The notes below the pieces were generated by a model. It made no database searches. It had not been told where the DNA came from and saw nothing but the letters and a program-made list of their open reading frames with translations. Source: Microgenomates group bacterium (GTDB lineage Bacteria; Patescibacteriota; Microgenomatia; PFEM01; JBNASD01). Taken from it: DNA of 64,000 nt. Position numbers and translations under genes: made by a program. Positions 1 through 14,318 of this stretch are shown here, piece by piece. The stretch is from the NCBI GenBank assembly GCA_049720225.1, contig JBNASD010000001.1, positions 293,217 to 357,216 on the forward strand. The letters are read 5' to 3'. The stretch's first letter is position 1; each line of letters opens with the position of its first letter.

Positions 1-603
1 TCCATTAGGACTAAAACCACTTCCACTAATTAAAACTGTGTCGGTTGGTGCATAATCAGCTTTGTCCGTTGCTAACTGAGCGCTTTGGGCAATATTCTGA
101 ACATCTAAATCCAAAGAGTTAACTGACTCAGTAGAAACATTATCCAAAATTAAAGCAGTAAGTTCTCCTTTTTCTGGTTGTTCTTTGACATCCTGAGAAG
201 TCAAATCTTGTTTTACTTCTGCTGTTGGCTCTTTCAAATCTTCTACCGCTGGTTTTTCAGTTGGTAATGCTCCTGTCGGTATTGTTTCATTTAGTATTAC
301 CCCACCTGAGGACTCCATACTTGTTCCTTCTTTAGGTGAAGTTTCGGGTGTCGGTGACGCTTCTTGAGTTGAGCTATTATCTACCACTGTTTCCGTTGTT
401 GAAGGTGGTACCTCTTCTGGAGTTTCTACTCTCGCTGTTTGGTCAATTTCTTGTACTGAAGAGGCTGGTTCTTCGGCTAAAATTGGTCGATAAAAAAGAA
501 AACCGTAATTAAATTGAAAAATTAAAGAAATTACCGTAAGAAGAGAAAAAAATTTCTGAAGTGTTTTAATTCTTTTAACTGATAATTTAAAAATTAATCT
601 CAC
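1..603 (-). CDS. Secreted Ser/Thr/Pro/Glu-rich (mucin-like) protein, N-terminal part only; the gene continues past the window start
   Basis: I translated the reverse strand myself. An open frame runs from a GTG at 601-603 to beyond position 1. It begins VRLIFKLSVKRIKTLQKFFSLLTVISLIFQ, a signal-peptide-like start, followed by an acidic T/S/P-rich region. The ORF track omits it because it is truncated by the window edge. The start codon is inferred, not certain. Confidence 0.45.
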   Translation of the reverse strand, partial: MRLIFKLSVKRIKTLQKFFSLLTVISLIFQFNYGFLFYRPILAEEPASSVQEIDQTARVETPEEVPPSTTETVVDNSSTQEASPTPETSPKEGTSMESSGGVILNETIPTGALPTEKPAVEDLKEPTAEVKQDLTSQDVKEQPEKGELTALILDNVSTESVNSLDLDVQNIAQSAQLATDKADYAPTDTVLISGSGFSPNG

Positions 604-688
604 ATTATTGGGGCAGGTTACCCGCACTATACCATTAATAATTATATTTTGTCAAGTTTTTCTTAAAAGTCAACTATAAATAAATACA

Positions 689-1321
689 TCAATTTACCTC
701 TTTAGCAATTACTATAAGTCTTTTTAAGGTGGTTCCTGGTGGATAACAGGTTTGTAAAGTTAAAGTTTTTCCTGAAACATGATTTTTAATATAATCTTCT
801 AAAATTTCTGGAGAAACTACTTTTTTTTCTACTACATTATATATATATTTTTTTCCTTGATAAAAAATATTTATTTCGTCTCCTTTTTCTAATTTTCCAA
901 TCAAAAAAAATACCGCATTATATCGATTTACATTCCAAAAAACATCAGTGGAATGAGCAAAAAGAAATACATTACCTACCTCCCCTGGATAAGCACTTCC
1001 TCTAGAATGAGCGACTCCTTTTTTAAGAATTGATAAATACTCATTGAGATTAGTGGGATCAACTTCCGCAAAAATTTTAGCATTAACACCAATTTTGGGA
1101 ATAACAATTCCAAAGTCAGTATCTAAAGGAATTATTGTGTCTTCTTTAAAACTTGAAGAAAAAAAAGACGAAATTAAAGAAGAAGAATTGCTAAACCTTT
1201 TAAACTGATACTTAATTTCTTCTTTTAAAACTGGAAAAAAAATTAAGCCAATAATTATTACCCCACCAATTATTAAAAGATTACCTATTTTTTTCAATAA
1301 TCTAAAGTTTATTTTGGCCAA
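689..1321 (-). CDS. Sortase family transpeptidase
   Basis: It has an N-terminal TM anchor, the conserved His context NVFLFAHS, the TLxTC catalytic motif (TLTLQTCYP) and a downstream Arg (LKRLIV). It overlaps the subtilase stop by 13 nt, consistent with an operon. Confidence 0.8.
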
Positions 1322-3006
1322 TAATAACTCCGATTAGTAAGGTAACTTTTTCCATCTAAACATCTCACTTCGTAAACAGGAGTTAATGATTTTTTCCTTC
1401 TTACAGTCCAATCTTCATTATCTGCAGGATCTGAATAATAATAAACTTCTTCTTTTCGACTAACAGAGTTATAACTTAACGAACCATATCTCCCTTCTGC
1501 ACATTTACAAAATTTATTAAGTTGGTTTTGATTAAGATAAAGATATTGATATTCTTCCCTCCAGCACAAAATCGGTGAAGGTGAAGGAGGAGGAATGGGA
1601 GTTAAAGTTGGAGTAACTTCAGGCGTGGGAGTGGGTGTTGAAGTAGGACTAGTGGTGGGTAAAGGAGTAGGGGTATCACTCGCAGTAGGAGTGGGTGTAA
1701 ACTCCGGTGTTGGGATAGCCGTTGGAGTAAAACTCGGCGTGGGAAACGCCCCTAACGCAGCCGCCGCATCAACTAATCCCCATCCATAAATATCATCTCT
1801 TCCCGGTGTTCCTTTGTCTTCCGCTGTTTGTTGAAGAATATTCTTCACTTCTAAAGGACTATTTGCTCTACCGGCAGAAATTACTAATGCCGCTACCCCA
1901 GAAACATGAGGAGTAGCCATTGAAGTTCCTTGATAAAAATAATAACCCCATTCAATTTTCGCCCCCTTTTTAACAAATGTTTGTTGTAAAACACCATCAC
2001 CATAACCATCTTTATTTTGATCAATACTCGTATTTCCTCCGGGTGCTACCAAATCAACTGAAGGTCCATAATTTGAATAAGGAGCTTTTGTTTCATCATA
2101 TTGAGTTGCTCCTACCGCAATTACATAATCATCATAACTAGCCGGATATAAACAGTTTGGTTTATTATCATTTCCGCAAGCAGCAATAACGACTACCCCC
2201 TTTTGATAAGCATAAGCAACCGCTTCTTTTAATGTTTGAGAATCGGAAGTTCCTCCCAAACTTAAATTAATTATCTTGGCTTTATTATCTACCGCCCAAC
2301 GAATTCCATCGGCAACATCAGCATATGTCCCTGAACCACTCGCATCTAACACTCTTACTGGCATCAAACAACTTTTATAAGCAATTCCTGCTACCCCTAA
2401 ACTATTATTAGTACTTTGGGCAATTGTGCCGGCAACATGAGTTCCGTGACCATTTTCATCAGTAGGATCGCTATCATTATTCACAAAATCATAACCAGCA
2501 ACAAAGCAAGTATTTAGCAGATCAGTCCCCCTTCTTATTCCTGAATCAACTACTGCTACTGTTACTCCTTCTCCCTTACTAACCTCCCATGCTTTTTCCA
2601 TCTGAATTCCTCCATAGACAGAATTATCTAAATGCCATTGATAAGAATAATAAGGATCATTAGGAACCATCAATGCATAAATCAAATAATTCGGTTCCGC
2701 ATAAGCGACTAAGGGATTTTTAGAGAAAGCTTTAATTATTTCTTTTTCCTTTCCCTTAGGAACTTTTAAAACAAAGGTTTTTTCTTTTCCTATCTGTTTT
2801 TTAATTTTTCCCTGATAAAGTTCAATTAACTTTTCCGAAATTATTTGGGGAACAAAAGAATTAAATTTAACAATTATTTCTTCAGGCACCATTTTTTCTT
2901 CAGAAAAATCAAAAGAAGCAAAAGTATTCGATGAATGATTAATAACTAAAAAAGAAGTTAAGAAAAAAAGTAAAATAAAAGGGAGAAATTTTTTCATTAT
3001 TATCAT
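1309..3006 (-). CDS. Subtilisin-like serine protease (peptidase S8) with a Pro/Thr-rich linker and a small Cys-containing C-terminal domain
   Basis: It has a signal peptide and an I9-like propeptide. The catalytic triad motifs are VAVVDSGI (Asp), [10 protein letters not shown] (His) and [15 protein letters not shown] (Ser). A PTPTP-type linker is followed by about 85 aa with 4 Cys. There is no LPXTG. Confidence 0.9.
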
Positions 3007-3039
3007 TATATAAATTAGGCTTAAAAATTGTCAATCTTT

Positions 3040-4026
3040 CTAGTAACCTTCAGGATGAGTTTTGTGCCATTTCCAAGCGGTTTCCACAATTGTTTTTAAA
3101 TCTGAATATTTTGGCTCCCAATTTAAGGTTTTTTTAATTTTTTCTGCTTTGGCAATTAACTGCGCCGGATCACCTGGTCGCCGAGAACCAACAGGAGAAG
3201 GAAAATCCACTCCAGAAACCTTTTTCACCATTTCTACTACCTCTTTAACCGAAAATCCTTTTCCTGTTCCCACATTAAAATAATAAAAATCAACCGGCGC
3301 TTTCTTAAGAAAATTTAAAGCTTTAACATGGGCATCAGCTAAATCTAAAACATGAATATAATCACGAATACAAGTACCATCGGGAGTAGGATAATCATCA
3401 CCAAAAATTTGAAATTCGGGAATTTTTCCTAAAGCGGCCAAACACGCTCTGGTAATTAAATGGGTTGGTTTGGGATAATCTTGACCGAAATTTCCATCCA
3501 AAGAAGCGCCAGCGGCATTAAAATAGCGCAAAGCCACTGAAGAAAGTTTATAAGCACCAGCATACCATTTTAAAATTTTTTCCACCATCAATTTTGATTC
3601 TCCATAAGGATTAGTAGGATTTTTAGGGGAATCTTCATCTATAGGAACTACCTCTGGTTCTCCATAAACTGCCGCTGTTGAAGAAAAAACAATTTTTAAA
3701 ACCCCGTACTTAATCATTACCCGCAAAAGGTTTAAGGTACCTAATACATTGTTATAAAAATACTTCTCCGGATTTAAAACCGATTCTCCAACCTCAATAT
3801 AAGCGGCAAAATGAATTACCCCTTCTGGCTTTTCTTTCTCAAAAATTTTTTCTAGCAAATCAATATCTTTTTGCAAATTTCCTTGATAAAAGGAAGTCTC
3901 GGGAATAGCTTGAAGATGACCTGTTTCTAAACTATCAAAAACCACCGGAGTAAAACCTGCCTTTTTTAAAGCATCAACTGTAAAACTACCAATATAACCT
4001 GCACCACCGGTGACTAAAATTTTCAT
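3040..4026 (-). CDS. galE: UDP-glucose 4-epimerase
   Basis: It has the Rossmann motif VTGGAGYIGS, the catalytic YGESK (YxxxK), and an overall length and order typical of GalE. Confidence 0.85.
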   Translation of the reverse strand: MKILVTGGAGYIGSFTVDALKKAGFTPVVFDSLETGHLQAIPETSFYQGNLQKDIDLLEKIFEKEKPEGVIHFAAYIEVGESVLNPEKYFYNNVLGTLNLLRVMIKYGVLKIVFSSTAAVYGEPEVVPIDEDSPKNPTNPYGESKLMVEKILKWYAGAYKLSSVALRYFNAAGASLDGNFGQDYPKPTHLITRACLAALGKIPEFQIFGDDYPTPDGTCIRDYIHVLDLADAHVKALNFLKKAPVDFYYFNVGTGKGFSVKEVVEMVKKVSGVDFPSPVGSRRPGDPAQLIAKAEKIKKTLNWEPKYSDLKTIVETAWKWHKTHPEGY

Positions 4027-4382
4027 TTAATAATCTCCTCTTTTAAAATTTTAGCAAAAAAACCACCACTAAAATCAACCACTAAATCTTGCCATTGAAA
4101 GGTTCTGGTAGGAACAAAAATTTGATGAACCTCATCAAAAAAAGCATAACCCCAAACACAAATTAAAGGAAGAAGAAAATCTTTTTTAATTTTTCCGAAG
4201 TTAATTGCCCGAAAAAATAAAAAATAACCAATTCCATAAAAAAGAAAATGAGCTCCGCTACGAATTATTTCATCCCAAAAATTATTCTCCGCTACCCGTA
4301 AATTAGGGATTGAAGATAAATAAAAAAGAGTTCCCATCCATATTCCTACCGGAAGCCATAATTTAATTTTGACTTTTGCCAT
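4023..4382 (-). CDS. VanZ-like family membrane protein
   Basis: It is small with 3-4 TM segments. It has a DEVHQIFVPTRTFQWQDLVVDFSG motif resembling the VanZ signature (DE.HQ...R.....D...d..G). It overlaps the galE start by 4 nt. Confidence 0.55.
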   Translation of the reverse strand: MAKVKIKLWLPVGIWMGTLFYLSSIPNLRVAENNFWDEIIRSGAHFLFYGIGYFLFFRAINFGKIKKDFLLPLICVWGYAFFDEVHQIFVPTRTFQWQDLVVDFSGGFFAKILKEEIIK

Positions 4383-5544
4383 TTGATTTTTGCCCTTTTA
4401 TTTGAGTATACCAAAAATAAACTCCCCCACCAAAAAGAAGCAAAAATCCTCCTCCTATAAACAATATTCCTATCCATTTTTTATTTTTAGGCGTTTCTGG
4501 GGAAGGAAAAACCATTTCTCCTTCTTCCGTTGATTCCCACGGATAAAAAGCGGAAGTTGCCGGTTGGCTTTCTCCTAAAATTTCTCCCTCTTTAGTAGCA
4601 GTTTCTGAGGGATGAATTTTAAAAGTAGGAGTAGGAGAATTAGGTGGCAATGATATTAAAGGAATAAAAGTAGGTGTTGCTGTAGGTAAAGAGGTAGGTG
4701 AAGAATAAGAAACATTTTCTTTTTCCATTATCGGATTAACTTCTAAATTATCTCCTGCTTTAATCTCAATTCTTTCTGACCAACTTTGGTAACCCGTTTT
4801 TTGTAACTCAATTAAATGACTACCAAATCCACAATCCACATAGGTATCACATTTACAACCCTCACAAAAAGTTAAAACTTCCGGTGCATAATGGTGAATA
4901 TAAACGCCATCGACATAAATTTTAACGTTGGAAATCGTCTCTCCGTTTTTATTTTTTACCTCATTTATTTTGTAAAAGGCTTTAGGAAAAGAAGTAGGAG
5001 TAAAAGAAACGGTTATTGAAGGAGTAACACTTAAAGCCAAAGTGGGTGTGGAAGAAGGGGTAGAAATTAAACATTCATTATCAGAAGGGGTAGGATTAGA
5101 AAAAACCACCCATTGAGAACTACCATCTGGTAATCTCCCTGTAGAACTTCCTTTTGGATGCAAAGGAATTTCTGAAGAAAAATAAGTTACCGAATCTACT
5201 AAATTTCCATCTTTGTCAAAGAGTCTAATACTATCACCATCGTTATTCAGTCGATTAGCAAAATTAAACTTCCGAAAACTTTTAGGACAAATAAATCCGG
5301 TTAAAATAATTTTATTTGTTTCCGTATTATCTCTAATTATCCATCCATTTAAATCAATTTCTTTATCGCTTAAATTATAAAGTTCCACCCAATCAGGATT
5401 TTCGGTAGTTCCATCAGTTACCGCTGCGAATTCATTAATCACTATTTCCGCGGCCAAACTAGAAGAAGAAAATAAAAATAAAAAAGTTATCATTAAAAAG
5501 AAGATTTTTGTCTTTTGAAACCACCCTCTCCTCCGGGCAGGCAT
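4363..5544 (-). CDS. Cell-surface protein with a lamin-tail domain (LTD), a PEGA-like domain and a C-terminal TM anchor
   Basis: It has a signal peptide. The LTD signature is INEF...DWVELYN...DLNGW...NDGDSIRLFDKDGNLVDSVTY. S/T/P linkers follow, then a PEGA-like block (KIYVDGVYI...QKTGYQSW). The C-terminus is a hydrophobic helix plus a basic tail (KKWIGILFIGGGFLLLFGGGVYFW..KGQKSNGKSQN). There is no canonical LPXTG. Confidence 0.7.
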   Translation of the reverse strand: MPARRRGWFQKTKIFFLMITFLFLFSSSSLAAEIVINEFAAVTDGTTENPDWVELYNLSDKEIDLNGWIIRDNTETNKIILTGFICPKSFRKFNFANRLNNDGDSIRLFDKDGNLVDSVTYFSSEIPLHPKGSSTGRLPDGSSQWVVFSNPTPSDNECLISTPSSTPTLALSVTPSITVSFTPTSFPKAFYKINEVKNKNGETISNVKIYVDGVYIHHYAPEVLTFCEGCKCDTYVDCGFGSHLIELQKTGYQSWSERIEIKAGDNLEVNPIMEKENVSYSSPTSLPTATPTFIPLISLPPNSPTPTFKIHPSETATKEGEILGESQPATSAFYPWESTEEGEMVFPSPETPKNKKWIGILFIGGGFLLLFGGGVYFWYTQIKGQKSNGKSQN

Positions 5545-5547
5545 TTT

Positions 5548-6042
5548 TTAACGATTTAAAAATAGCCTTTTAATTTTTCTTTTAATTTGAATAATTATCC
5601 ATTTAGAACGTAATTCTTTTGGTAATTCATTTAATCCTTTAAAAACTCTATAAAAAGGAGCTTTTTTAATATTTAAGGCGTCTTTTATTTTTAAAGGACT
5701 TGGAGGAGTAGTTTTCTTTAACGCTTCTTTAATTTCCATCCAAGCAACCTCTAAATTTTCTTTAGGATCTGTTTTTAGTTTACCCCCCTTACTTAAACAA
5801 ATAAAAGTGATATTTAGAGTCGGAAAAAATTTAAGATTTCTAAAATAAATTCCGGAAACTTTTAATGGTTTTATTTTTATTCCTGTTTCTTCATAAGTTT
5901 CGCGAATTACCGCCTCTAATAATGATTCTCCTTTTTCTACCTTTCCTCCGGGAATAGTCCAAATTTTTAAATCTTCCCTTTTTTGCACTAAGACTTTAGT
6001 TTTATTTTTGTTAAAAACAACCGCGCTAACTCCGATATCCAT
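5548..6042 (-). CDS. NUDIX hydrolase
   Basis: The Nudix box is GGKVEKGESLLEAVIRETYEETGI (Gx5Ex7REUxEExGU). Confidence 0.85.
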   Translation of the reverse strand: MDIGVSAVVFNKNKTKVLVQKREDLKIWTIPGGKVEKGESLLEAVIRETYEETGIKIKPLKVSGIYFRNLKFFPTLNITFICLSKGGKLKTDPKENLEVAWMEIKEALKKTTPPSPLKIKDALNIKKAPFYRVFKGLNELPKELRSKWIIIQIKRKIKRLFLNR

Positions 6043-6046
6043 TTTT

Positions 6047-7264
6047 TTACTTAAATACTACAATTTTATCTATTAAACCAATACTATAAAAATCTTTAAA
6101 ATTTTTATCATAACCATGCCAAGGATCGTGCATAATATAATTATCTTGCTCTTTTTTCTTAATCACGACAAAATGTCCATCACCGCCTAAATTTAAATGG
6201 ACAATTACTGGTCGCCCCTCATTTAATTCTTTATCCATTTCGTTTATTCCTCCTACCACAATATAACTTTTTCCTGGCGGGGCTGGCCAAGGTTGAAGCA
6301 TATAAGCGGTGGTGCTAAAAAAATAAGAAGGATTAGAAGCAATTTCGATTGGGGTAATATTTTGCCCATAAAATTTATGAATCATTGCCACACTAGATAC
6401 TAAACACCCGACATCAAAGATTATTTCTGAAGACAATCCAATTGTTTTCTTTGCCCATCTTTCATCTCGTTGGCTAAAAAACCAACCGTCAGGACTATTT
6501 TGTGGCGGCAAAATTCCTCCAGTTTGTTTAGAGGTAAAACCCTTAAGGCTTCTTACCTCGGCTATTGCTTTTGCTAAAAGTTGTTGATATTTTGTTTCGT
6601 TATTTTGAGTCACTGCCAAAAGGTTTTCTTTTGCTTTTTTCTCTTGAGCCAAAATTGCCTTTTGAGATTCCAATTTCTTTTTTGCCGCCTCCAATTCTTT
6701 CTGTTTTTCTTCTTTAATATTTTTTTCATCCTCAAAATTAGTTCTCACTGTTTCTAATTGAATCATTAGTTTCTTATCATGAATTTGCATTACTTTAAGA
6801 TACTTCCAACGATTAATAAAATGAGAAAAACTATCAGAAGAAAAAAGAATAAAAACAGGGTCTATCTTTCCCTTCTTATAAGTAGCGCTTACTCGCTTCA
6901 TTAAAATTTCAGACAATTGATTTAAAGAAAGGTCTAATTTATCGATTTTTTTGTCTAAATCGACAATTTCTTTTTCTAAAATTTCTATCTGTTTAGTAGT
7001 GGCGTAAATTCGGGTGGTGGTTAAGTTAATCGCCGCATCAAATTTGGCAATCTCATTTTTTAAGGTTTGTTTTTGCTGACCAACTTGAGATAAAAGATTA
7101 GAAAAAATTCTCTCGCATTCTTCTACTTCTTCTACCTTAAGCTCTCCTTTACCAATTTTATTCTCGCATTCTTCTTGGGTAATTGCTTCAATTTTTCCCG
7201 AAAAAAAACTAAAAATTAAACAAAAAATTAATAAAAAAAGAAGCTTTCTGAAAATTTTCTCCAT
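6047..7264 (-). CDS. Secreted coiled-coil protein with a C-terminal papain-like (C39-like) cysteine peptidase domain; a PcsB/EnvC-type putative FtsEX-coupled cell-wall hydrolase
   Basis: It has a signal peptide and about 220 aa of heptad-rich coiled coil with many E/K/Q residues. The C-terminus has Q..W...GC (QRDERW...DVGCLVSSVAM) followed by His/Asp (GHFVVI, MHDPWHG), as in the Peptidase_C39_2 fold. It lies immediately downstream of ftsE-ftsX on the same strand. Confidence 0.6.
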   Translation of the reverse strand: MEKIFRKLLFLLIFCLIFSFFSGKIEAITQEECENKIGKGELKVEEVEECERIFSNLLSQVGQQKQTLKNEIAKFDAAINLTTTRIYATTKQIEILEKEIVDLDKKIDKLDLSLNQLSEILMKRVSATYKKGKIDPVFILFSSDSFSHFINRWKYLKVMQIHDKKLMIQLETVRTNFEDEKNIKEEKQKELEAAKKKLESQKAILAQEKKAKENLLAVTQNNETKYQQLLAKAIAEVRSLKGFTSKQTGGILPPQNSPDGWFFSQRDERWAKKTIGLSSEIIFDVGCLVSSVAMIHKFYGQNITPIEIASNPSYFFSTTAYMLQPWPAPPGKSYIVVGGINEMDKELNEGRPVIVHLNLGGDGHFVVIKKKEQDNYIMHDPWHGYDKNFKDFYSIGLIDKIVVFK

Positions 7265-7265
7265 T

Positions 7266-8135
7266 TCATTTAAGATATTTTCTTACTGCTAGCCAACTTC
7301 CTAAACAACCAATTAAAACTCCCAACGTCAATTCTCCTCCCAAAACCATCAACATAAAAATAACGGAAACAGGCAAAAGCGATATTCCTTCTAAAAATTC
7401 TTTCAAAAATGGTGTCGAATAAAGTAAAAGAAGAAAAGCTAATCCCCACCCCAAAATTCCACCTAATACTCCGTAAAAAATTCCCTCTAGAATAAAAGGA
7501 AAATAAATATAGCCCTTAGTAGCACCCAAAAGTTGAAGAATTTCTACCTCTTTTTTCCTTAAAGCAACTTTCATTCCAATAATTACTAAAATTACTAAAA
7601 AGGAAACTAAACTTAAAAAAGAAATCATTCCTATTCCAATTTTTCTTAAGTTATCAGTCCAATTTTTTAATGATTTTACAATGTCTTCCTGATAAACCAC
7701 CTCCTCCACGAAAATACTTTCTTTTAAAATTTTTGCTACTTCTCCTAAATAAGAAATATCAGTGGTAGAAACTTCTAAAGAGGCAGGTAAAATATTAGCA
7801 GTTACCATTTCTAAAAGTAGGGGGTCGTTTTTATTTTGTTCTTGATAAATTTTTAAAGCTTCTTCTTTGGAAACATACTTTATTTCTTTTATTTTTCCAG
7901 TCGCTAACAAACGAGACTTTAATTCATTTATTTGTCCTTCAGTTGCTTCATCTTTGAAAAAAGCAGTTACCTGAGGACGAGTTTCAAAAAATTGAAGAAT
8001 CTTTTGTGAACCTACTGCTGACAAAAAAAGGAGTGTAGAAATAAAAAAAGTCAATGTCATTATCCCAATTGCCGCTAAGGCTTGATAAGGAGAACGACGA
8101 ATATGTTTCCAGGTTGTCGCCAAATGATCTTTCAT
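7266..8135 (-). CDS. ftsX: Cell division ABC transporter permease FtsX
   Basis: It has one N-terminal TM, a large extracytoplasmic domain, then three C-terminal TMs. It is adjacent to ftsE. Confidence 0.8.
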   Translation of the reverse strand: MKDHLATTWKHIRRSPYQALAAIGIMTLTFFISTLLFLSAVGSQKILQFFETRPQVTAFFKDEATEGQINELKSRLLATGKIKEIKYVSKEEALKIYQEQNKNDPLLLEMVTANILPASLEVSTTDISYLGEVAKILKESIFVEEVVYQEDIVKSLKNWTDNLRKIGIGMISFLSLVSFLVILVIIGMKVALRKKEVEILQLLGATKGYIYFPFILEGIFYGVLGGILGWGLAFLLLLYSTPFLKEFLEGISLLPVSVIFMLMVLGGELTLGVLIGCLGSWLAVRKYLK

Positions 8136-8141
8136 AAAAAA

Positions 8142-8813
8142 CTATTTCTCTCCTTTCTTTTTATCGGCAACAACTTTTCCTTTATCTAATTCAATAATTC
8201 TTTTTTTAAACCTTTTTACTATTTCTACATTATGAGTAGCCATAATTACTATTTTTCCTCCTTGATTAATTTTTTCTAATAAGTCAACTATCTGTTGGCC
8301 AGTACTAATATCTAAATTTCCCGTTGGTTCATCGGCAATTATAATTTCTGGATCACCAACTATTGCTCGGGCAATACAAACTCGCTGCAACTCTCCTCCT
8401 GCTAATTGAGCGGGAAAAAAATTAGCTCTTTCGCTTAAACCAACTTGTTCTAAGGTTTCTTTAACTTTTTGTTCAATTTCTTCCTCTTTCTTTTTTAAAA
8501 TTTTTAATGGCAAAGCAATGTTTTCAAAAACGGTTTGATCGGGCAAAAGCTTTAAATCTTGAAAAATCATTCCTATTTTTCTTCGATAGTAAGGGATTTT
8601 TTTTCGTGGCACCGAAGCTAAATTTACCCCTGCAATTTCTATTTCTCCTTCGGTAGGAAGATATTCCCTTAAAATTAAGCGGGCAATTGTTGTTTTTCCC
8701 GCTCCCGAAGGTCCCATCAAAAATACAAATTCACCCGGTTCGATTTCAAAACTAACGTTTTCTAAAGCAGTAATCTCGCCAAATTTTTTGGTAACATTTT
8801 TAAAACTAATCAT
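8142..8813 (-). CDS. ftsE: Cell division ATP-binding protein FtsE
   Basis: Walker A is GPSGAGKTT, the ABC signature is LAGGELQRV, and Walker B is [11 protein letters not shown]. At 223 aa it has the size typical of FtsE. Confidence 0.85.
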
Positions 8814-14232: not shown

Positions 14233-14318
14233 TGGTCCAGGGGGGAGGATTCGAACCTCCGCAGGCATACGCCGACGGTTTTACAGACCGTTCCGTTTGG
14301 CCACTCCGGCACCCCTGG
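14233..14318 (-). tRNA. tRNA-Tyr (anticodon GTA), type II with a long variable arm
   Basis: I folded it by eye on the reverse strand. The acceptor stem is CCAGGGG/CCCCTGG. The anticodon stem ACGGT/ACCGT holds the loop CTGTAAA. A long variable arm and the T-arm GGAGGTTCGAATCCTCC follow. Discriminator A and CCA are encoded. It lies directly downstream of tyrS. Confidence 0.85.

Follow-up and report, generated by a model that had tools for sequence, protein, structure and literature searches.

A Microgenomates sortase that probably serves a neighbouring giant adhesin through a signal other than LPXTG

Introduction

In Gram-positive bacteria, sortases of classes A-F act on proteins with a sorting signal made of a short motif, a hydrophobic helix and a basic stretch, and in Clostridioides difficile the protease PPEP-1 (ZmpI) releases sortase-anchored adhesins (PMC4591827). 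Sortases are reported to be near-ubiquitous in Microgenomates (PMC6744442). In the literature searched, sortases of the Candidate Phyla Radiation (CPR)/Patescibacteria, Microgenomates among them, appeared in statements of presence only, with neither substrates nor recognition motifs. Here, a sortase locus in a 64,000 nt stretch of DNA from a Microgenomates group bacterium (the window, which is the whole stretch that was analysed) is described. All genes discussed lie on the minus strand, and positions 1-5544 form the distal end of a larger block. An initial annotation, made from the letters alone, had described there a sortase, an S8 subtilase, a truncated mucin-like secreted protein and an LTD-PEGA protein with a possible non-LPXTG C-terminal anchor, and had proposed that the sortase either recognises a non-canonical motif or is dedicated to the truncated neighbour. 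For comparison, 90 related loci (referred to by L numbers) were fetched, and homologues of every window protein were located in them. The comparison indicates that the sortase probably serves the giant adhesin encoded next to it by way of a signal other than LPXTG; for the LTD protein, plain anchoring in the membrane is the probable state.

Results

The sortase

The window sortase consists of an N-terminal membrane helix and a catalytic beta-barrel, and is 100% identical to the NCBI entry MGB9911262.1, 'MAG: sortase [Microgenomates group bacterium]'. Its longest open reading frame (ORF) extends to 1321 (210 aa), while NCBI places the start at the TTG at 1297; since the latter start is used here, the S8 and sortase genes do not overlap. 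The generic sortase models PF04203 (82.5 bits, cut-off 26.6) and TIGR01076 (43.0 bits, cut-off 39.35) were both passed, and an alignment with 29 relatives showed that the catalytic residues H123, C192 (in LTLQTC) and R201, numbered on the 210 aa ORF, are invariant. The AlphaFold2 (AF2) model, with a predicted local distance difference test score (pLDDT) of 82.8, has the eight-stranded beta-barrel of sortases, and Foldseek matched it to solved sortases with E values of 1e-11 to 1e-9.

Classification by hidden Markov models, which the initial annotation had recommended, placed the protein in the sortase family and in none of the classes A-F. None of the NCBIfam class models reached its cut-off (SrtD 58.2 bits against 140, class D 54.6 against 165, class C 51.7 against 160, class E 50.0 against 160, class F 22.6 against 166), and in the PDB profile search and Foldseek the class D, C, E and A enzymes matched about equally well, at 25-28% identity. 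An assignment to the lid-bearing class C was favoured by neither the sequence nor the fold searches and was rejected. Because the generic models are passed, the catalytic triad is kept and no class model is reached, the protein is regarded as a real sortase on a CPR-specific branch, which is predicted to be catalytically competent and to stand outside classes A-F.

About 1,770 relatives of the sortase were found at E<=1e-5. When 22 sequences were grouped by the unweighted pair group method with arithmetic mean (UPGMA) on identity, loci with an LPXTG signal in the adhesin were separated from loci with the signal VLGAATGS (see below), and the window sortase nested among the latter (L004 73%, L017 70% and L005 69% identity). 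A few positions are specific to this clade, among them an insertion of a single residue at position 175 of the window enzyme, shortly before the active-site strand TLQTC.

In a distant lineage (L089:2702-5286), a sortase lies between the gene for a 223-aa protein and a PMT-family protein O-mannosyltransferase-like gene. The 223-aa protein ends with GGVLPNVGG, a helix and RLKLAKR, and is likely a small sortase substrate with an LPNVG-type motif as judged from this tail, while the PMT-family gene hints at glycosylation of Pro/Thr-rich surface proteins.

The giant adhesin and its sorting signals

The gene that follows the sortase is cut by the end of the window, which holds about 200 of its codons (start GTG at 603, alternatively GTG at 627). 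The fragment encodes a signal-peptide-like N-terminus and a Pro/Thr/Glu-rich linker, after which the first folded domain begins (…DKADYAPTDTVLISGSGF). In BLASTP, it matched the N-termini of the post-sortase genes in L005, L006, L019, L056, L085 and others. Therefore the term mucin-like fits only the N-terminal linker of a giant adhesin. In the related loci, the post-sortase gene encodes 1,179-2,700 aa with SdrD_B, SpaA, DUF11, Cna_B and sometimes VWA domains; the complete orthologues of the window adhesin measure 1,539-1,713 aa and carry SdrD_B, SpaA and DUF11 domains. A protein search with the 193-aa N-terminus gave no match, a result that is uninformative on pseudogenes because the database searched lacks the exact LTD protein as well. 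The scan of contigs for relatives returned only matches of 46-48% identity, and the contig of L088, whose sortase is 72% identical to that of the window, ends directly after the sortase.

A sorting-signal-like segment was detected in the adhesin of every related locus in which its 3' end was covered. In ten loci, which belong to the sister sortase clade, this segment reads VLGA[AS]T(E)LP[AGPM]TG[SN]xT and is followed by a hydrophobic helix and a basic stretch; the tail of the L046 adhesin passed the sorting-signal model TIGR01167 (24.6 bits, cut-off 15.9). In the clade of the window sortase, the segment VLGAATGS[PE]T, likewise followed by a helix and a basic stretch, was identical in 8 of 8 non-redundant loci. 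Tails of this second type scored 14.6 and 10.5 bits with TIGR01167, under the cut-off, and aligned with the model only from 'TG' onwards (model position 4). VLGAATGS[PE]T thus resembles the canonical signal minus 'ELPAT', with AAT/GS in place of the PAT/GS of the sister clade (the slash marks the corresponding bond). Within the 64 kb window, no further sorting-signal candidate was found. Judged by its homologues, the truncated neighbour is most likely the dedicated substrate of the sortase. Both proposals of the initial annotation, the pairing of the sortase with this neighbour and a motif other than LPXTG, thus found support by homology, the latter in the form of VLGAATGS[PE]T.

The partner protein of the adhesin

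In all 19 loci in which the 3' end of the adhesin is covered, it is followed by a membrane protein of about 300 aa, which consists of an Ig-like domain, an FN3-like domain, a stalk, a C-terminal helix and a strongly basic tail. The FN3-like domain bears the signature YRLxWKNPxDxDFxRVLIYRS…YYYALRAVDxAGNxS, and the protein had no Pfam match. It is encoded either by a separate gene, whose start overlaps the adhesin stop, or as an in-frame fusion to the adhesin (BLASTP E 1e-27 to 1e-80). In the fused form, the adhesin is followed by VLGAATGS[PE]T, a first helix and a basic loop. A second helix with an AxA-like site at its end comes next, and then the partner domains, a third helix and the basic tail. 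Such a topology is self-consistent. Once cut by the sortase and by signal peptidase, it would yield two mature products identical to those of the split form. The four complete orthologues nearest to the window (L004, L007, L017 and L022) are all of the fused type.

Fused ORFs were found at L004:3982-9060, L007:10701-15623, L017:1035-5651 and L022:4037-9175, and also in L001, L002, L027, L035 and L039; their second helix looks like the signal peptide of the partner. Fused and two-gene forms are both present in both signal-type clades. An alignment of the partner proteins (e.g. L025:9630-10538) showed two invariant lysines, one of them in the motif [DEN]Y.KE[RK] at the domain junction.

One of these lysines could be the acceptor for a sortase-mediated ligation. 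The sortase would then act like a pilus ligase and join the adhesin to the partner, which would stay in the membrane by its own helix, giving a two-subunit, membrane-anchored fibre that is not linked to the wall. The constant co-encoding of adhesin and partner by coupled or fused genes, the VWA-, SpaA- and Cna_B-type domains, which recall pilus tip adhesins, and the presence of class C pilus sortases among the closest solved structures all point in this direction. On the other hand, neither a lid segment nor a DP[WFY] motif was seen when the sortase sequence was inspected, no pilin motif or E-box model matched the partner (which also lacks any Pfam match), the similarity of the sortase to classes D, E and A is just as great, and most loci contain a single sortase. 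Ligation of the two proteins is hence considered unlikely, though it is among the better of the alternatives to the dedicated anchoring of the adhesin.

The subtilase and a motif shared by the stalks

The S8 subtilase upstream of the sortase is built of an N-terminal prodomain (Fervidolysin-type), the S8 domain, a Pro/Thr linker and a C-terminal Cys-rich domain (PF00082 208.6 bits; PF22148 45.7 bits). Its catalytic triad D154/H187/S362 is found in the motifs VVDSG, HGTHV and GTSMA. No C-terminal hydrophobic segment or membrane anchor was detected, in agreement with the initial annotation, which had described the enzyme as devoid of a sorting signal. A mycosin of a type VII secretion system was considered and rejected: TIGR03921 gave 250.9 bits, below its cut-off of 278.75, the C-terminal helix is missing, and no ESX-type genes lie nearby.

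The Cys-rich domain had no Pfam or NCBIfam match. Among 1.84 billion representative proteins it was found in 87 clusters, 58 of them at E<=1e-10, almost always at the extreme C-terminus of secreted enzymes; most of these were S8 subtilases, but a lipase-like protein and a LamG+GH2 protein also carried it. It is kept in the subtilases of L005, L012, L017 and L028 and may provide secreted enzymes with a module for retention or binding.

A secreted protease beside the sortase was found in the window and in 20 further loci. An S8 protease with the same Cys-rich domain occupies this place in five loci and the window, and an M10 matrixin in 15 loci and L088 (e.g. L088:8797-9579, L025:1433-2158); both enzymes are present beside the sortase in L008 and L012.

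The surface proteins of these loci have a short motif, [EQK][IV]LG, in common. In the window it occurs as E-I-L-G in the disordered stalk of the LTD protein. Of the 112 homologues of this protein that were collected, 86 have a C-terminal helix and were treated as anchored; 73 of these 86 contain [IV]LG, at a median distance of 37 residues before the helix. Its conservation (0.69) is close to that of the best folded domain (0.71), although the stalk is modelled as disordered. The same motif is found in the stalk of the partner protein, often twice, and in the adhesins, where it stands directly before the LPXTG site or is part of VLGAATGS. From the non-redundant ORFs of these loci, 38 were selected that combine a signal peptide with a single C-terminal helix and a basic tail; the motif lay within 80 residues of the helix in 34 of them, against a background of 5.6-11% per 80-residue window. 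Shuffled tails averaged 2.6 of 38 and never exceeded 9. Polytopic proteins included by mistake account for three of the four ORFs that lack the motif. As the 38 ORFs come from few families, these counts are not independent. No family or motif corresponding to [EQK][IV]LG was found to have been described, and searching the literature for strings of this kind gave only noise.

The motif is possibly either a release site for the S8 or M10 protease or a docking element of the sortase. As a release site, it would be cut by the protease encoded next to the sortase and would allow a regulated release of surface proteins, a function that is compatible with the anchoring of the adhesin by the sortase. 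Such a role would suit the frequent presence of a secreted protease beside the sortase, the promoter-like site that the adjoining S8 and sortase genes share in the window, and the location of the motif, whose Gly follows a hydrophobic residue, in stalks that are exposed and disordered. Subtilases prefer a hydrophobic residue at such a position. A precedent is PPEP-1/ZmpI of Clostridioides difficile (PMC4591827). However, by inspection the motif is the same in loci with S8 and in loci with M10, many loci that bear it show no protease within reach, and the cleavage is only predicted. By analogy with PPEP-1, a release site may thus be proposed, but as a tentative and rather improbable function.

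Points against cleavage of the adhesin signal

Several observations weigh against the assignment of the adhesin as a sortase substrate. The Leu-Pro present in all characterised sortase motifs is missing from VLGAATGS[PE]T, and together with its score under the TIGR01167 cut-off this means that it could be a degenerate anchor that is not cleaved. As the C-terminus of the adhesin of this genome falls outside the window, its signal type is deduced from its relatives. The UPGMA grouping of the sortases is not a tested phylogeny, so that the clade-specific residues may merely reflect common descent, and no biochemical test of any CPR sortase was found in the literature searched. Finally, the LTD gene lies within one to three genes of the sortase in about 20 loci, and its stalk and the adhesin signals have [EQK][IV]LG in common, which makes a shared processing possible.

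If the signal had decayed, the adhesin would be a plain membrane-anchored protein and the substrates of the sortase would be encoded elsewhere in the genome; in favour of this, besides the missing Leu-Pro and the low score, the scan of this genome for substrates was confined to the 64 kb window. Yet VLGAATGS is the same throughout the eight non-redundant loci, whose sortases share only 55-73% identity with that of the window, and this points to selection on VLGAATGS itself. Moreover, the TG[SN]xT half of the canonical signal stays in register, the sortase retains both the catalytic residues and the position beside the adhesin, and a search of the 64 kb window and of the clade's 20 kb loci revealed no alternative substrate. 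A decayed signal is thus regarded as improbable, somewhat more so than ligation or release.

The LTD/PEGA-like protein and its tail

In the AF2 model, the LTD protein begins with a signal peptide and an LTD Ig-like domain (residues 34-148). A disordered Pro/Thr linker then leads to another beta-sandwich (188-269, pLDDT >90), after which a stalk modelled as disordered (281-352, pLDDT <50) leads to a membrane helix (around 355-388) and a short K-containing tail. The first domain was recognised by PF00932 (56.5 bits, cut-off 34.3) and matched lamin Ig-folds in Foldseek with template modelling (TM) scores of 0.56-0.58, normalised to the target; the second matched transthyretin-like domains (TM 0.6-0.67). 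The PEGA model PF08308 reached 17.6 bits in the window protein, below its cut-off of 20.8, while a precomputed PF08308 match exists in the close homologues P0122-P0124. The name LTD-PEGA given before is thus reasonable, with the LTD part firmly assigned and the PEGA part under its cut-off despite the transthyretin-like fold of the model.

The C-terminus quoted in the initial annotation, ...VFPSPETPKNKKW followed by a hydrophobic helix and a K-containing tail, was exact. As a sorting motif, however, this segment did not stand up to comparison: PSPETPKNKKW is not conserved among the homologues, which have no more than a basic cluster ahead of the helix in common. No LPXTG-like motif was found in the window protein, nor within 25 residues of the helix in any of the 86 anchored homologues, and neither TIGR01167 nor any other NCBIfam sorting-signal model matched the tail even at E<=10. 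A signal of the PEP-CTERM/PGF-CTERM type was rejected, as no NCBIfam model matched. With 3 Lys in 17 residues the tail is weakly basic, where adhesins and partners end in RRR/KKK tails; an equally basic KNKK precedes the helix, and an ordinary membrane anchor would have the same look. The helix contains an invariant Gly, but its overall conservation (0.47) hardly differs from the value for the LTD domain (0.51) and is a minor argument. In the distant loci L089 and L090, the LTD gene is kept after RF1-FtsE-FtsX-M23/PcsB and before VanZ; in L089 the sortase is located 6 kb from the LTD gene, beside its own small, probable LPNVG-type substrate, and in L090 no sortase was detected within 10 kb of it. 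In the window, moreover, the two best promoter-like sites set the S8-sortase pair and the adhesin apart from the packed run that includes the LTD gene. Because no LPXTG-like motif was found among the 86 homologues, no model matched, the tail is weakly basic and the FtsEX-PcsB-VanZ context persists in L089 and L090, a permanent anchor is favoured: the tail is most likely a plain membrane anchor of a protein tied to the FtsEX-PcsB-VanZ genes, and the LTD protein is probably not a sortase substrate.

An alignment of the C-termini of LTD homologues, as the initial annotation had suggested, gave no motif adjoining the helix, and instead revealed [EQK][IV]LG about 37 residues away. That annotation had also named the outcome that would speak against it, a plain anchor without upstream motif in the LTD protein and a substrate elsewhere with a canonical LPXTG; a candidate substrate does lie elsewhere, namely next door, but in this clade it has no canonical LPXTG. 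The least probable of the alternatives, processing of the LTD protein as well by the sortase or at its C-terminus with [EQK][IV]LG as recognition element, would account for a motif that is as conserved as a folded domain in a disordered region, enriched in anchored ORFs and placed directly before the LPXTG or ATGS site of the adhesins, and for the vicinity of LTD and sortase genes in about 20 loci, but is disfavoured because the motif stands a median of 37 residues from the helix while all recognisable signals of these loci abut it, a canonical LPKTG signal without VLG in L003 means that the motif is not required for a signal, the LTD gene of L089 keeps both the motif and the FtsEX context with a sortase that is not adjacent, and the 38 ORFs stem from few families.

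Gene order and layout of the locus

The genes named in the initial annotation were all recovered on the minus strand by ORF listing and family scans, at the coordinates first given (Table 1). Its description as a run of exported proteins applies to the surface genes but not to GalE and NUDIX, which are cytoplasmic. The block has the order FtsE-FtsX-PcsB-like-NUDIX-LTD/PEGA-like-VanZ-GalE, followed by the S8 protease and the sortase and then by the giant adhesin. From the PcsB-like gene through GalE, the genes overlap or are separated by gaps of a few bases. The two best sigma-70-like sites of the minus strand fall exactly into the gaps between GalE and S8 and between sortase and adhesin, while the overall number of such sites is not above that of shuffled sequences. 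The layout suggests three units, a packed run from FtsE to GalE, the S8-sortase pair and the adhesin gene, the latter two each behind a promoter-like site. The site at 3005-3034 abuts the annotated ATG of S8 at 3006; hence translation may in fact begin at Met4 (2997), so that the leader would be very short or missing.

Table 1. Features of the locus on the minus strand, with peptides of the LTD protein and of adhesin signals
Feature	Position	Strand	Basis or remark
Adhesin, 5' part	1..603	-	translation; BLASTP
Sigma-70-like site TTGACA-18-TATAGT with upstream TG, sortase-adhesin gap	626..655	-	11/12 consensus matches only
Sortase	689..1297	-	PF04203, TIGR01076
S8 subtilase	1309..3006	-	PF00082, PF22148
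Cys-rich C-terminal domain of subtilase, ~95 aa, ending …YYWPK	1312..1611	-	unannotated
Sigma-70-like site TTGACA-18-TATAAT, GalE-S8 gap	3005..3034	-	12/12 consensus matches only
UDP-glucose 4-epimerase GalE, cytoplasmic	3040..4026	-	TIGR01179 438.8 bits, cut-off 262.3
VanZ-like small membrane protein	4023..4382	-	PF04892 45.1 bits (cut-off 30.1); NF037970 66.7 (cut-off 20)
LTD/PEGA-like type-I membrane protein, 393 aa	4363..5544	-	PF00932; AF2 model
C-terminal membrane helix WIGILFIGGGFLLLFGGGVY, invariant Gly366	4417..4476	-	LTD protein
E-I-L-G, residues 321-324, disordered stalk, 33 residues before hydrophobic stretch	4573..4584	-	LTD protein
NUDIX hydrolase	5548-6042	-	family scans; contiguous with LTD gene
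PcsB-like coiled-coil protein with C39-like peptidase domain	6047-7264	-	family scans
FtsX	7266-8135	-	family scans
FtsE	8142-8813	-	family scans
LTD peptides			KEGEILGESQPAT; VFPSPETPKNKKW
Adhesin-signal peptides			QVLGAATGSPTYL; STELPATGSRT

In about 20 loci with enough flanking sequence, the order was 160-aa protein-FtsE-FtsX-PcsB-like-(NUDIX)-LTD-VanZ-(GalE)-(protease)-sortase-large gene. As these loci were assembled independently, the arrangement is not due to chance. The LTD gene is followed by VanZ in every syntenic locus, also in the distant L089 and L090, and GalE adjoins the sortase in about 25 related loci. From the shared orientation of galE and the VanZ-like gene, the initial annotation had suggested that sugar-nucleotide supply may be linked; both are recurrent neighbours of the sortase, and a tie of GalE and VanZ to it is suggested by synteny alone.

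The PcsB/EnvC-like coiled-coil protein carries a C39-like peptidase domain in the window and in L088, and its relatives in other loci gave faint M23 matches. GC skew was negative almost throughout the window (1-64000, cumulative -4.67), and the genes examined are nearly all on the minus strand; a strand composition disparity has been reported for one complete Microgenomates genome (PMC7143001). The sole RNA gene found in the window is a tRNA-Tyr at 14233-14318.

Discussion

Proposed anchoring of the adhesin

Gene content, catalytic residues, synteny and the types of signal, together with their distribution along the sortase clades, were read directly from the loci, and a simple scheme can be drawn up from them. 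The adhesin would be exported by Sec and held in the membrane by VLGAATGS[PE]T, the hydrophobic helix and the basic stretch, provided that in this genome it ends with the signal of its closest relatives. The sortase would then cleave after the Thr of …AAT/GS…, the positional match of LPAT/GS in the sister clade, and transfer the adhesin to a wall precursor or to a protein acceptor. The Ig/FN3-like partner would be released as a separate membrane-anchored protein, either from its coupled gene or from the fusion behind the signal. The LTD/PEGA-like protein would remain a bitopic (type-I) protein, held permanently by its own C-terminal helix, and would belong functionally to the FtsEX/PcsB/VanZ envelope genes.

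A broader proposal is that Microgenomates have a lineage-specific way of sorting, in which recognition of VLGAATGS[PE]T, an internal signal within a polyprotein and [EQK][IV]LG as a second recognition element act together. The polyprotein would yield the giant adhesin and an Ig/FN3-like base, and the sortase may ligate the two. That all three elements hold jointly is doubtful, and the proposal is put forward as speculation.

The locus offers a testable pairing of one sortase with one giant adhesin and one obligatory partner protein, in which the change of the signal from LPXTG to VLGAATGS[PE]T parallels the sortase clade. If VLGAATGS[PE]T is cleaved, the known recognition code of sortases is widened, and the finding would point to the principal adhesin of organisms that are presumed to live on the surface of other cells. 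At the same time a false lead is removed, as the tail of the LTD protein is most likely a plain membrane anchor.

Comparison with known systems

The upstream part of the block resembles the FtsEX-PcsB/EnvC division hydrolase module, as the genes for FtsE, FtsX and a coiled-coil PcsB/EnvC-like protein stand one after another ahead of the LTD gene. It differs in the hydrolase domain, which is C39-like in the window instead of CHAP or M23, and in the conserved LTD-VanZ-GalE-sortase extension, which is absent from the described module.

The adhesins share SdrD_B, SpaA (prealbumin-like), Cna_B, DUF11 and some VWA domains with MSCRAMM/SdrD-type and VWA pilus tip adhesins, and like these they combine a long Pro/Thr-rich N-terminal linker with a C-terminal sorting signal. 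Their scores with the MSCRAMM_SdrD and MSCRAMM_SdrC models are nevertheless far under the cut-offs (62 against 2500), and the CPR adhesin is always paired with or fused to the Ig/FN3-like membrane protein.

As with PPEP-1 (ZmpI) of Clostridioides difficile, a secreted protease is encoded beside sortase substrates that carry a short stalk motif outside the anchor. In place of the M34 Pro-Pro endopeptidase, however, a subtilase or an M10 matrixin is found here, [EQK][IV]LG is not Pro-rich, and the cleavage is hypothetical.

Class E sortases of Actinobacteria, which are of the housekeeping type and recognise LAXTG, accept a small residue in place of Pro, and 'GAATG' resembles 'LAxTG' in its Ala-x-Thr-Gly. 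Against this, the class E model reached 50 bits with a cut-off of 160, the Leu lies one position further away (LGAATG), and the system of the window is known from its sequence.

With the sortases A-F of Gram-positive bacteria and their TIGR01167 signals, the window sortase shares the fold, the His-Cys-Arg residues, the N-terminal membrane helix and an adjacent substrate gene that encodes a motif, a hydrophobic helix and a basic stretch; the sister CPR loci even carry true LPXTG signals that pass TIGR01167. The best class model, however, gave 58 bits against cut-offs of 140-166, and the clade of the window has VLGAATGS[PE]T without Leu-Pro instead of LPXTG. A further difference is that the signal here can be internal and is then followed by a second helix and a further protein domain.

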